Virus record (IMG/VR): IMGVR_UViG_2690316278_000003
Strand: one strand, 5' to 3'
DNA: 4,877 nt
From: a virus
Taxonomy: Duplodnaviria > Heunggongvirae > Uroviricota > Caudoviricetes
Positions 1 to 4,877 of this stretch are shown here, piece by piece. The notes under the pieces are model-generated. The model saw only the letters and a list, made by a program, of their open reading frames with translations. It did not search any database and was not told where the DNA came from. Numbering within the stretch: the stretch's first letter is position 1; every line of letters starts with the position of its first letter. Position numbers and translations under genes: made by a program.

Positions 1-297
1 ATTGATTTCATCAAACTGCTCATCGTCCATTAGCAACCCCGCATGCGTCAGCGCATCCAGCGGCGCTTTCAGAATATTGTCCAGGTCACGGCGGCGCTTA
101 TCCGGTGGTTCTGCAATAATTTTTATTGCCAACCTTCCGGACAGGCTTAATTTCAGCCGCTGCTGGCGAACAATAAGCGCCACTGCCCGGCGATAACGCT
201 CCCCGGCTTTTGATACAAAATATGTGCTGCCACGACGACGCCAGTAAGTGTTCACCGTCGGCGGGTAAGGTAAAACAAATTCTATGCGCTCGGTCAT
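1..297 (-). CDS. rusA: RusA-family Holliday-junction resolvase, partial (N-terminal 99 codons; C-terminus lies beyond the left window edge)
   Basis: Minus-strand ATG at 297..295 directly after the TAA of the upstream gene (TAAATG). Hand translation gives MTERIEFVLPYPPTVNTYWRRRGSTYF...IIAEPPDKRRRDLDNILKAPLDALTHAGLLMDDEQFDEIN with no stop down to position 1. The PD(K/R)RRRDLDN...DAL...DD block matches the RusA motif recalled from E. coli RusA. Not in the supplied ORF track. Confidence 0.8.
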   Translation of the reverse strand, partial: MTERIEFVLPYPPTVNTYWRRRGSTYFVSKAGERYRRAVALIVRQQRLKLSLSGRLAIKIIAEPPDKRRRDLDNILKAPLDALTHAGLLMDDEQFDEIN

Positions 298-1356
298 TTA
301 TGCTTTCCACTTCAGAACACCCGAATTTCTCGCGTGCATTAAAAAACGAATCAGCAACAACAGCTGACTGCCGTGTTTCTCTTCAAAATCTTTTACTCCG
401 GCATGTAGTTCGTTACGGCATTTACGGCATAACGGAATAACAAACAAATCATCAGCCTTTGTTCCCATCCCTCCCAGTCCATGACCAATGATGTGATGCG
501 GATCATCTGCCTGATTGCCACACGTCATGCATTTCTGCGTTTTTACCCAGCGCGTGTATACAGGCATCTCTTCCCGTTGTGATTTCTGGCGCTGGAGATA
601 CTGAGCCGGTGACTCCGGATCAACGGCAATGCTGACCACCGTCTTTTCCTGTGGTGGGTTCTGTTGCTGGTGGACGTGAGGCAGTAACGCAATATTTTTT
701 GTGCGCTGCTTCAGTATGCTGGTGGCTGTCTGCTCTCCCGGTATGATGTCGCTTTCACTGTACACAGAGCGAATTTTTTCCGCACGCAACCCCAGCGAAC
801 GACGTAATACCGCTTCCGGTAGCGCGTCCGCCACCTGATTGCGGACCGCCCACCAGGATAATTCAGCCAGAGATAATTCACGCTCCTGCGTACCGCTTAT
901 TGCGTGACCGATGACGTCAATCATCCATGCTGACAGGTTTTGATGAGCAAGTTGCTCGAGTGATTCGGATGTCTGGTCACGCAGCTGGTTGTCGCAGTGC
1001 CAGCACAACACCATTGCGCCGGTACCATAACGGTGAATGACGGTTTCGCTGTGATGATAATCGCCGTGTGGCCACTGGCAGGATTTAATATGGCGCAACA
1101 GCCAGTCAGACAATGCACCAGCACCACCAGCAGCACGAATCACCCGTGCGTTACTGAAAAACGGCAGCAATGTTTTGTCTTCCACCAGCGGCTGGCGAGC
1201 GGCAGGAACGACCCCGGACGGCAGATTACGCATGCTTTTTGGTTCCGGCTCCACCAGTATTCTGCCGTTATGGAATGCTGACATTGATTCACGGCCTGGC
1301 TTAACGATAACCAGACCGAGTTCCGGTACCAGAACAGGTCGAAGTAATACCCGCAC
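298..1356 (-). CDS. YdfU-like phage protein (DUF968-type) with Cys/His-rich HNH-like C-terminal motif; 352 aa if the GTG start is used
   Basis: Long 352-codon minus-strand ORF. Apparent start is GTG at 1356..1354, 4 nt after a GGAGG SD and just after the upstream TAA. C-terminal region has CMTCGNQ...DPHHIIGHGLGG...LCRKCRNELH. Size and position (after a rem-like gene, before rusA/Q) match ydfU of the K-12 Qin prophage by recollection. Start codon is uncertain; the first in-frame ATG is codon 25. Confidence 0.75.
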   Translation of the reverse strand: MRVLLRPVLVPELGLVIVKPGRESMSAFHNGRILVEPEPKSMRNLPSGVVPAARQPLVEDKTLLPFFSNARVIRAAGGAGALSDWLLRHIKSCQWPHGDYHHSETVIHRYGTGAMVLCWHCDNQLRDQTSESLEQLAHQNLSAWMIDVIGHAISGTQERELSLAELSWWAVRNQVADALPEAVLRRSLGLRAEKIRSVYSESDIIPGEQTATSILKQRTKNIALLPHVHQQQNPPQEKTVVSIAVDPESPAQYLQRQKSQREEMPVYTRWVKTQKCMTCGNQADDPHHIIGHGLGGMGTKADDLFVIPLCRKCRNELHAGVKDFEEKHGSQLLLLIRFLMHARNSGVLKWKA

Positions 1357-1357
1357 A

Positions 1358-1636
1358 TTACCTCCAGATCCGTTGCTGGAATGTGCGGGACGGACGCGTT
1401 GGCCGTTCGGAGTAAGGGAGCCTGACGGAGATTATCCAGTGACGGTAGTCGAGGCTAAGGGCTTTTTTAACCTCGCATCCGCGCCTGCGGTAACACTGAA
1501 TGAGCCATTCGGCCTGTTCTTCAGTGCATGGGGGATGCTGGTACCAATCAGATTTAAATGCGTGAGAGCGCCGCCCGTGCCTGCTGGCAAAGACGGCTGA
1601 ATTATCAGAATTGTGTAGTCTGGAATTTTGCGCCAT
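1358..1636 (-). CDS. hypothetical small protein (92 aa), translationally coupled to the downstream YdfU-like gene
   Basis: ATG at 1636 preceded by GGAGAAAGCCG (SD-like), the same initiation context used by the 200-aa gene in the other module copy. Stop TAA at 1360..1358 abuts the YdfU-like start. Unusually rich in rare AGG/AGA codons, so coding status is uncertain. Confidence 0.45.
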   Translation of the reverse strand: MAQNSRLHNSDNSAVFASRHGRRSHAFKSDWYQHPPCTEEQAEWLIQCYRRRGCEVKKALSLDYRHWIISVRLPYSERPTRPSRTFQQRIWR

Positions 1637-2404: not shown

Positions 2405-2469
<65 letters not shown>

Positions 2470-2471
2470 GC

Positions 2472-2548
2472 TGGCCCACCACCGAGGACTCGAACCTCGC
2501 ACCGTCAACTTAGAAGGTTGATGCTCTATCCGGATGAGCTAGTGGTGG
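2472..2548 (-). tRNA. tRNA-Arg (anticodon UCU)
   Basis: Minus strand CCACCAC-TA-GCTC-ATCCGGATA-GAGC-A-TCAAC-CTTCTAA-GTTGA-CGGTG-CGAGG-TTCGAGT-CCTCG-GTGGTGG-G-CCA. All 7 acceptor pairs, anticodon stem and T-stem form; 77 nt with encoded CCA. Anticodon TCT in a 7-nt loop. Confidence 0.85.
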
Positions 2549-2549
2549 T

Positions 2550-2626
2550 TGGTGGCCCTTGCTGGACTTGAACCAGCGACCTGGCGATTATGAGTCGCTC
2601 GCTCTGACCAACTGAGCTAAAGGGCC
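2550..2626 (-). tRNA. tRNA-Ile2-like (anticodon CAU, ileX/ileZ type; automated tools may call it tRNA-Met)
   Basis: Minus strand GGCCCTT-TA-GCTC-AGTTGGTCA-GAGC-G-AGCGA-CTCATAA-TCGCC-AGGTC-GCTGG-TTCAAGT-CCAGC-AAGGGCC-A-CCA; 77 nt, acceptor fully paired, CCA encoded. Acceptor and T-arm closely resemble E. coli ileX as recalled. Separated from tRNA-Arg by 1 nt. Confidence 0.85.
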
Positions 2627-2635
2627 GGAGGCAGA

Positions 2636-2665
2636 ATAATAACCATATGTCATCACATCTGCAAA
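2636..2665 (-). promoter_or_regulatory. Candidate sigma70 promoter for the tRNA cluster (weak -35, good -10)
   Basis: Minus strand TTTGCA/TTGCAG (2665-2659), 17-18 nt spacer, TATTAT (2641-2636), then GC-rich CTGCCTCC before the tRNA-Ile 5' end at 2626. By-eye hexamer match only. Confidence 0.25.
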
Positions 2666-2712
2666 CTCATCTGACCACCAGCACGTTTAACGTCCTGTGC
2701 CGTTTTTCAGGT

Positions 2713-2738
2713 ATAAAAAAACCCGCATAAAGCGGGCT
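2713..2738 (-). terminator. Rho-independent terminator about 80 nt downstream of the Q-like gene (tR'-like position)
   Basis: Minus strand GAGCCCGC-TTTAT-GCGGG followed by TTTTTTTAT (plus-strand stem 2722-2726/2732-2736, A-run 2713-2721). Confidence 0.55.
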
Positions 2739-2815
2739 CTTTCAAATGTCCATGTCTGCTATTCGCCTCGCGGTACAGCTTTGCGAAGCGTACAAGAATT
2801 GAAGCAGTTTTTACG

Positions 2816-3370
2816 TCAAAAAGCAATAACTTTTTTCTCTATACCAAAAGCCATAACCATTGGTTTGTACAAAATAAATTCTGCCACCTTTAGCCAATGC
2901 TCAATGCGTCTTTCACAGGTTCTTAAACTCCATTTCGGGTGTGCATCATTCAGCAGTTCAGCCATTTTGCGTTTGGTCATCCCCCGCCCCTCATACCGTT
3001 GCCGAAGGACGCTAATCAATCCTGGATGCTCTGCCAGCACCTCACTTATGACCCGATCAATACATAACGCCTCTGCATCAGTACAATGCGCCAGCCAGCT
3101 CTTTTGCTTACCGTTAATCATATCCCGCAAAAAAGCCTCAAGTTCAGACTTGTTCAGACCTGCTTTTTTCATCCTCCGGAGCGCCTCGTTAATTGCCGTT
3201 TTTGTCAGCTTTTTAGAGGTCAACATCAGGTTAAACATATTCCCCGTCTTACCGCCACCAATATACGACCAGCGCCCCCACATACGTAGTTTTCCCTGAA
3301 TCCAGACACTTTCCAGCGTGGTGAGACGAAGGTGTTCTCCGCTTTTTCCTGTATTCGTTGGGTAAATCAT
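2816..3370 (-). CDS. Putative late-gene regulator in the antiterminator-Q position (184 aa); assignment by synteny only
   Basis: ATG at 3370..3368 preceded by AAGGAGG, overlapping the YbcO-like stop (TTATGA). Product begins MIYPTNTGKSGEHLRL. Sits between a ybcO-like gene and the terminator/tRNA cluster, where Q lies in lambdoid and Stx phages. No Q sequence motif recognised. The 40-codon upstream extension in the track is rejected. Confidence 0.55.
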   Translation of the reverse strand: MIYPTNTGKSGEHLRLTTLESVWIQGKLRMWGRWSYIGGGKTGNMFNLMLTSKKLTKTAINEALRRMKKAGLNKSELEAFLRDMINGKQKSWLAHCTDAEALCIDRVISEVLAEHPGLISVLRQRYEGRGMTKRKMAELLNDAHPKWSLRTCERRIEHWLKVAEFILYKPMVMAFGIEKKVIAF

Positions 3371-3657
3371 AAATATCCCTCCTTTCTCCAGATTTCTTGT
3401 GTGCGAAAAACACCTTCTGCATGCATCAGGCGTAATTCTTCTTTGGTGTAATCGCTGGTTTTTACCCGCCCGTCGATTAAATCGTGGCACGAGCTACAGG
3501 CAATCGCTGCCTGCATATCGTGTGGCTTTATCGCTGTTCCGCACGTTCCCGCCAGTCGGTAATGCGCCAGCACAGACGTTTCCGGATCGTGATTGCAGTA
3601 GCCAGGAATTCTGACGGTGCACATCTGCCCCCGCGCCGCTTTACGTAAATCCACCAT
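3367..3657 (-). CDS. ybcO: YbcO-like (DUF1364) phage protein, putative nuclease, 96 aa
   Basis: MVDLRKAARGQMCTVRIPGYCNHDPETSVLAHYRLAGTCGTAIKPHD...IACSSCHDLIDGR matches the recalled DLP12 YbcO pattern (ADLRKAARG..C.VRIPG.CN..PETSVLAH.RL...). ATG at 3657..3655 overlaps the upstream TAA by 1 nt. Confidence 0.85.
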   Translation of the reverse strand: MVDLRKAARGQMCTVRIPGYCNHDPETSVLAHYRLAGTCGTAIKPHDMQAAIACSSCHDLIDGRVKTSDYTKEELRLMHAEGVFRTQEIWRKEGYL

Positions 3658-4256
3658 TACGCAAACTCCAGCAGCTGCGCGGCCACATTTTCGACTTGTT
3701 CCGGAGAGGAAAATTTACGGAACAGAATCCAGTTCCACAGCACATTCAGAACAGATTTATAAACCTGCTGAAACTCGGTTTCGTCCATATTCGCAAACGC
3801 GATAGATTTCGCCCGACACCCACGGCTACCGTCCGGATAAAAATGCTCGGTGTAAAATCCAGCCTGAATGGTTACCCACTCGCGAAAAGCCTCAAACGAC
3901 TTTAGCAATGCCGTATCCCGGGTTCTGCGTGTCGCAACTGTATTCAGATATTGCTCTGCGGCTTCGCTCAGAGCTGGCGTATGTTCCCGGCCTACTGATT
4001 CACACAGGTAATCAACGAAACCGGACACCAGTTTTCGTTCGCGAGGCGTGATCGCCCCACCGACCGGAGTCCAGTAATCGAAACCCAGTTGCAGGAGTTT
4101 GAAAAAACGCTTGTGGAATGCGTAGTTACACACACGCTTAAAGTCTGCGTGTATCCACTCACCTATTTTGATTTGATGCAGAAAATCGCAACTCTCCGGC
4201 GTCGCCGGGAGAAGTAATCCGGAAGAGGTTTGTTTGACCAGTTGTATATGTGCCAT
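3657..4256 (-). CDS. Hypothetical phage nin-region protein (200 aa), possibly DUF1367-family
   Basis: ATG at 4256..4254 preceded by GGAGAAAGCCG; product begins MAHIQLVKQTSSGLLLPATPE. Continuous ORF to TAA at 3659..3657, coupled to ybcO. The track's 14-codon 5' extension has no SD. The DUF1367 suggestion rests on typical prophage gene order and is unverified. Confidence 0.7.
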   Translation of the reverse strand: MAHIQLVKQTSSGLLLPATPESCDFLHQIKIGEWIHADFKRVCNYAFHKRFFKLLQLGFDYWTPVGGAITPRERKLVSGFVDYLCESVGREHTPALSEAAEQYLNTVATRRTRDTALLKSFEAFREWVTIQAGFYTEHFYPDGSRGCRAKSIAFANMDETEFQQVYKSVLNVLWNWILFRKFSSPEQVENVAAQLLEFA

Positions 4257-4294
4257 CGGCTTTCTCCGGTGGCACGGTGTTACACAGCAGGAGT

Positions 4295-4582
4295 TCAATC
4301 CTGCTCAAGATTGTAGATGAGTTTATTCTTCAGCAAAAGCAGAAAACCAGCCTTAAAACCAATCTCTTTCAAAACCCGTAATGATGTGACAAATTCGTCC
4401 TCACGCAAAATAAAACCGTCCGTCAGAAGTCCATTACAAAAATAAAATAACACAGCACCGCTCTTCCTTTGTTGAGATTGCAAACATCTAATGCGGCAAT
4501 GGCTGACAATCGCTCCATTCTCAACGCGCACAGCATAGAGGCCATTTTCACTAAAAATTTCACGCAATTCTTCGATTTTCAT
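4295..4582 (-). CDS. Rem-like small phage protein, second copy (95 aa, divergent extended C-terminus)
   Basis: ATG at 4582..4580 with GGAAGGA SD; MKIEELREIFSENGLYAVRVENGAIVSHCRIRCLQSQQRKSG. Paralog of 1703..1963; the C-terminus differs after KAGF because of a 1-nt difference in a homopolymer. Confidence 0.7.
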   Translation of the reverse strand: MKIEELREIFSENGLYAVRVENGAIVSHCRIRCLQSQQRKSGAVLFYFCNGLLTDGFILREDEFVTSLRVLKEIGFKAGFLLLLKNKLIYNLEQD

Positions 4583-4700
4583 CTTCAGAATCCTTCCAGA
4601 TAAATAGCTCTCCCCTGTTCGGGGTCCATCCCTCTTCTCCCTGCGCGCTACTTAAGTGAGTCGATTCTATCTGCGAAGGTGCGCGAATCAAATTCACCGG

Positions 4701-4754
4701 AAATAAACAACAAAAAACCCGCCGAAACGCTGAGAGATCACAGCGATGGGCGGG
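4701..4754 (-). terminator. Rho-independent terminator downstream of hok copy 2 (extended two-part stem)
   Basis: Plus-strand CCCGCC (4718-4723) pairs with GGCGGG (4749-4754), with an inner CGCTG/CAGCG stem. On the minus strand it is followed by a T-rich tract (plus-strand A-tract 4701-4717). Positional homolog of the 2084-2115 terminator. Confidence 0.5.
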
Positions 4755-4831
4755 TTAAGTGCGGGTGCGTTGAGGATGCCTGACACATCAGAGGTGGGCG
4801 GGGATGGGATCAGCTCCCCGCCCGGTCACTC

Positions 4832-4877
4832 TTACTTCCTGGATTCGTAGTCTACGAAGACAGCGACCTCCGTCTGG
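4832..4877 (-). CDS. hok: Hok-family toxin, second copy, partial (C-terminal 15 codons plus stop; rest beyond the right edge)
   Basis: Minus-strand translation of 4877..4832 gives ...QTEVAVFVDYESRK then TAA, homologous to the C-terminus of hok copy 1 (QTEVAVFTAYEPEE) and other Hok/Gef proteins. Embedded in the duplicated module. Confidence 0.7.
   Translation of the reverse strand, partial: QTEVAVFVDYESRK

Follow-up and report, generated by a model that had tools for sequence, protein, structure and literature searches.

The stretch of DNA analysed here (4,877 nt, referred to as the window) carries all of its genes of interest on the minus strand. At its left end lie p92, encoding a 92-amino acid protein (positions 1358–1636), a gene for a 352-amino acid YdfU-like protein of the DUF968 family (298–1356, with a GTG start at 1356–1354 and a TAA stop at 300–298) and rusA, of which the N-terminal 99 codons are present (1–297, ATG at 297–295), the frame being open at the window end. 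An initial sequence-only reading had described the stop and start codons between these genes as overlapping, but the actual gaps are 1 nt and 0 nt. The first junction reads GGAGG-TAA-T-GTG on the minus strand, with one spacer base between the p92 stop (1360–1358) and the GTG, and the second reads TAA-ATG (300–298, 297–295), the two codons abutting. Direct reading of the sequence places the Shine-Dalgarno GGAGG of the DUF968 gene (1361–1365) within the final codons of p92. For these three genes, which share one direction with 0–1 nt between them, co-transcription and translational coupling are almost certain. Such close packing is usual in phage operons and is, on its own, no more than expected. 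All three genes are under purifying selection, with a pN/pS of 0.11–0.17 for the DUF968 gene.

Upstream of the cassette we found a spacer with a ribosome-binding site (1637–1702), rem (87 aa, 1703–1966; phrog_340, with Pfam Rem PF27490 on record for rem in identical loci) and a hok/mok ORF (70 aa, 2184–2396; Pfam HOK_GEF, E = 3e-23), which is followed by a terminator-like hairpin (2098–2115). Promoter and terminator scans gave background levels, the hok terminator excepted. The other copy of the hok-rem module in the window is followed by an alternative cassette (3367–4259), consisting of a DUF1367 gene (200 aa, 3657–4259; Pfam DUF1367, E = 9e-96; phrog_319, 'NinB/Orf homologous recombination mediator') and the gene for YbcO, a small HNH protein (96 aa, 3367–3657; Pfam YbcO, E = 8e-45; phrog_131, 'HNH endonuclease'), directly after which comes the Q antiterminator gene (DUF1133, 2816–3370; Pfam DUF1133, E = 2e-107). 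These matches agree with the first description of this copy as holding a 200-amino acid protein and YbcO, the latter being partnered here with DUF1367 and not with RusA. Pairwise alignment of positions 1560–2400 with 4180–4877 showed that homology between the two copies extends through the rem-p92 spacer and ends just past a shared ATGGC start, placing the cassette swap boundary exactly at the first start codon; the proposal of two alternative cassettes behind homologous hok-rem flanks is therefore upheld.

That the two copies belong to one element is, however, not borne out by the data. Positions 1–2406 match one set of loci with 100% identity and positions 2408–4877 another with 99.6–99.7%, with a blastn break at 2406/2408. 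The join (2406–2408) truncates the right-side tRNA-Thr 14 nt before its end; in an intact relative this tRNA-Thr is followed by tRNA-Gly. The junction at 2407 was absent from 5,426 complete E. coli genomes, IMG/VR and the GTDB representative genomes, a set in which Shigella is subsumed under E. coli, so that the strain diversity of Shigella sonnei lay outside the search. The window combines two separate prophage fragments, and the contig is possibly artefactual. In GCA_965230885.1 the two pieces are about 124 kb from each other, and the join may be either a genuine rearrangement, such as the junction of a tandem duplication, or an error of assembly.

The DUF968 protein carries a C-terminal HNH domain

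The 352-amino acid protein matched Pfam DUF968 with 210.3 bits (cutoff 27.8) over residues 160–344 and Pfam HNHc_6 with 28 bits, while phrog_96 ('HNH endonuclease') spans its whole length (E = 1.1e-162). Pfam DUF968 was also matched by 31 of 31 diverse homologues. The C-terminal HNH/His-Me finger domain comprises residues 261–344 (positions 325–576) and has the ββα-metal (HNH) fold. By inspection, a structural zinc site is formed by two CxxC pairs, C276/C279 and C310/C313; C276 is invariant in an alignment of the 31 diverse sequences, and C276, C279 and C310 are invariant in another (alignment A3). The general-base histidine expected at the end of strand 1 (D-P-H-H) is found in DDPHH at residues 284–288, where H287-H288 are of the catalytic type and H288 is at least 90% conserved. 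Further along the domain lies H318, the second His of the metal-site motif discussed below. The C-terminal part of the DUF968 protein is a zinc-stabilised HNH nuclease domain homologous to those of YbcO, P1 Ref and ΦNM1 Gp16, which confirms the early suspicion of an HNH-like C-terminus in a YdfU-like protein; nuclease activity would follow by analogy with these relatives. Other comparisons added little: YbcO and DUF1367 gave nothing but noise when compared with YdfU by pairwise BLASTP, and PDB sequence searches with the single protein and with the 31-sequence profile gave nothing useful.

The N-terminal domain (residues 1–160, positions 877–1356) is predicted with a pLDDT of 80–96 and contains a β-hairpin (105–118) followed by a helix. 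It matches phrog_11007 over residues 2–135 and has a conserved C93 and a cluster C118-W-H-x-D122; C93 and C118 are invariant among the 31 sequences. We considered whether the protein could be an Orf(NinB)-HNH fusion, equivalent to a fused DUF1367+YbcO cassette, and rejected this for the YdfU subfamily, as the N-terminal domain has no fold or sequence signature of lambda Orf (NinB, 1PC6). None of the 31 family members matched Pfam NinB, the p92-DUF968-rusA cassette gave no Pfam match to NinB or NinG, and the domain showed no significant similarity to DUF1367 or to the C-terminal domain of the same protein. The idea that its Cys/His motif is a duplicated second HNH domain was likewise unsupported (hhalign E of 0.079 only).

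RusA and p92

Within the window RusA matched Pfam RusA (PF05866) with 58 bits (cutoff 22.8) over its 99 residues, as well as phrog_34 (RusA-like resolvase, E = 1.5e-48) and NCBIfam PRK09786, in keeping with its assignment as a resolvase; for the rest of the cassette NCBIfam added nothing. Loci with 100% identity (L003–L005, L155–L162) have the whole gene (126 aa). Inspection of the translation revealed acidic residues in R-D71-L-D73 and D91-D92, which we take to be equivalent to the catalytic aspartates of E. coli RusA, presumably D70, D72 and D91.

The p92 protein is a member of phrog_1212 (E = 7e-35) and covers the full profile, positions 1–66 of which correspond to its residues 27–92. These residues form the conserved core, the N-terminus being variable and disordered, and a 67-amino acid Klebsiella-type homologue also matches the family (E = 1e-25). 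No nuclease fold was found in p92, and a PDB sequence search with it returned nothing useful. Small and basic, it could tentatively be regarded as an accessory partner of the nuclease/resolvase pair, acting as a regulator, an adaptor or a DNA-binding factor.

A slot with two states upstream of Q

In order to follow the cassette across genomes, a scan was performed with a 10-sequence DUF968 alignment, yielding 80 species-level loci with 38–95% identity. RusA lies within 4 kb of the DUF968 gene in 58 of these and is absent from the remaining 22. Members of phrog_1212 occur in 14 of the 80, always adjoining DUF968 or RusA-DUF968, and are absent from 66. RusA is also missing from 3 of the 66 phage loci with p92-DUF968; these show the ydfU-Q arrangement without rusA that we assume for E. 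coli K-12 Qin, in which ydfU is presumably followed directly by the Q gene. Given these absences of RusA and p92, the p92/DUF968/RusA trio is not obligatory. Where the trio does occur, in six genera, its genes are ordered either as p92-DUF968-RusA or as p92-RusA-DUF968. In Enterobacterales the DUF968 gene is usually last or second-last before Q (Q families were spot-checked among the neighbours).

The slot behind the hok-rem flank had been proposed to be a variable hotspot. Among 86 informative loci, p92-DUF968 occupied it in 66 and DUF1367-YbcO in 18, and only these two states were seen, which argues for a two-state slot instead. Of the two findings that were together to count against a swapped nuclease cassette, the lack of an HNH fold and an invariant cassette content, neither was obtained: the fold is present and two cassettes occur.

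An arginine at the conserved metal-site histidine

The window copy departs from its family at one position of the HNH domain. The codon CGT at 415–417 encodes Arg314, so that the sequence reads CRKC-R-NELH in place of CRKC-H-NELH; the first His of the metal-site motif C-x-x-C-H-x3-H, directly after the second CxxC, is therefore lost, while the second, H318, is present. Counting only homologues in which the motif was found (197 in total), position 314 is always a His, both among close homologues (119 of 119) and among species-level homologues (78 of 78); a majority of the 31 diverse sequences have it too, and the position aligns with H185 of Gp16. The H185A mutation in Gp16 relieved toxicity only in part, and R314 therefore need not abolish activity.

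This copy matches that of a cryptic prophage of S. sonnei adjoining ompW, and in S. sonnei genomes the surrounding prophage is full of IS1 and IS3-family elements. With Arg in the place of a conserved metal-site His, and with so many insertion sequences in the host prophage, the nuclease of this S. sonnei copy is probably weakened. Arg314 lowers the claim of an active nuclease for this copy and leaves its family membership by descent unaffected.

One may go further and regard the cassette in the window as a decaying relic without current function, carried in a cryptic Shigella prophage and on a possibly artefactual contig. We consider this a serious possibility for which the odds are somewhat below even. 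Besides the substituted His and the insertion sequence load, a 250-nt deletion that takes away the greater part of rem together with the beginning of p92 is found in 7 of the 8 places listed (L155–L160 and L162, not L161), and the junction at 2407 is unattested in the collections searched. On the other hand, none of the three reading frames is disrupted in the window (rusA as far as the window end), the identical protein occurs on at least 1000 contigs, under the name 'DUF968 domain-containing protein [Shigella sonnei]', and an Arg at the metal site may reduce rather than abolish activity. Decay would in any case be limited to this copy and is compatible with the explanation given below for the family.

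Discussion

We favour, with a probability of roughly 70%, the reading that the cassette is the recombination/DNA-processing part of the nin region in a lambda-like prophage, the nin region being the early rightward operon that lies between the replication genes and the late-gene antiterminator Q, and that it takes part in RecA-linked processing of branched DNA. By analogy with Ref and Gp16, proteins of the DUF968 family would nick or cut the DNA of recombination or replication intermediates, D-loops for example, after which RusA would resolve four-way junctions, leaving the phage DNA unbranched before packaging. We infer the nicking role because Ref and Gp16 both need, or are stimulated by, RecA. 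This RecA dependence is transferred from relatives which share just the HNH core of about 70 residues, their N-terminal domains being different. Gene proximity in phage operons is in general weak evidence for joint function.

The HNH domain could also serve a different end. As Gp16 inhibits replication of the host and compacts its nucleoid (PMC12817073), and Ref increases the lethality of ciprofloxacin (PMC4713147), the DUF968 protein might mainly damage or arrest the host chromosome early after induction instead of aiding phage recombination, RusA and p92 being mere neighbours. We think this unlikely: the NinB-like N-domain of Gp16 is not found in YdfU, the linkage to RusA in 58 of 80 loci and the fixed nin-type recombination slot fit DNA processing, and retention of the gene in many long-resident prophages argues against high toxicity.

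A more specific form of joint action, in which p92, DUF968 and RusA make up one three-part machine, is also doubtful. Here p92 would be the dedicated partner of a RecA-linked HNH nuclease, as an inhibitor, a chaperone or an adaptor to RecA, SSB or branched DNA, and the pair would pass nicked D-loops to RusA in an undescribed pathway of recombination or replication restart that would differ from lambda Orf/Rap. The two gene orders of the trio are compatible with such a machine.

Phage HNH genes that stand alone are frequently mobile, and the sharp boundary at the start codon between homologous flanks could suggest a selfish, homing-type endonuclease whose cassette spreads by cutting cassette-free phage genomes. 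This is improbable, as the gene keeps a single pre-Q position over the 80 species-level loci (Q spot-checked) despite 38–95% identity, is under purifying selection and encodes a two-domain protein of 350 residues within a multi-gene block; moreover, the alternative cassette has an HNH gene of its own, which points to replacement of analogues rather than presence versus absence, and the slot shows two states only. Recombination remains the best reading of the two roles originally suggested, the other being anti-defence: accessory genes of prophage early regions sometimes turn out to counter host immunity or exclude competing phages, and p92 has no assigned function, but p92, DUF968, RusA and Rem gave no PADLOC match at E values up to 0.01, the slot is no diverse island, its neighbours are recombination and regulation genes and the literature groups the family with recombination nucleases (PMC5714182), making such a module very improbable.

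For the window itself, the outcome is mainly a clean annotation. If the mechanism we favour holds, RecA-guided DNA cutting would be common in lambdoid phage recombination, a process that drives mosaicism among prophages as well as the swapping of toxin and regulatory modules. Prophages of E. coli and Shigella that carry DUF968 proteins number in the thousands, relatives of Stx phages included.

The cassette had been put forward as a new candidate nuclease module, but it is a standard, previously classified nin-region block. Jablonska et al. (2017) placed DUF968 and YbcO in one His-Me finger group ('group 7'), noted RusA and Q as neighbours and proposed a role in recombination (PMC5714182). The closest known relative is YdfU of E. 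coli K-12 Qin (Pfam DUF968, PF06147), of the same family, with a full-length match, the same position upstream of Q and RusA and Q as neighbours; the window copy differs from this family by the Arg at conserved His314, with cluster mates about 92% identical. YbcO (DUF1364, PDB 3g27) of DLP12/phage 82, found with the Orf-like YbcN and RusA, consists of the 96-residue nuclease core only, to which YdfU adds about 260 N-terminal residues. With the nin region of lambda (Orf/NinB, Rap/NinG, NinH) the cassette shares its place in the operon, flanked by the replication genes and Q, and the theme of a recombination mediator with a branch-specific nuclease, whereas the protein families differ. Analogous genes are exchanged mosaically among lambdoid phages, with Orf, Rap and NinH in lambda and YbcN, YbcO and RusA in phage 82/DLP12 (PMC4118853).

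P1 Ref (PDB 3plw) is a RecA-dependent HNH nuclease (PMC4330346, PMC3973344) whose N-terminus is a disordered basic tail and not a folded domain; its genomic context is different and its sequence similarity to YdfU marginal. Gp16 of Staphylococcus phage ΦNM1 (Pfam HNHc_6) has been shown experimentally to be a RecA-dependent nickase (PMC12817073). Its HNH domain is homologous to that of DUF968 (hhalign probability 94.3%, E = 1e-7, 32% identity over 66 columns), with reciprocal Pfam cross-hits above threshold and a common motif, CxxC...H...C-R-x-[C/H]-H-x3-H. Both are early-operon phage genes, with RusA a few genes downstream in ΦNM1. Gp16 has 223 residues and a NinB-like N-domain, an Orf/NinB-HNH architecture also proposed for Gram-positive DUF968 proteins (PMC4118853), whereas YdfU has 352 residues and an unrelated N-domain. 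If the proposed mechanism is correct, P1 Ref and ΦNM1 Gp16 would have their enterobacterial counterparts in the DUF968 proteins.

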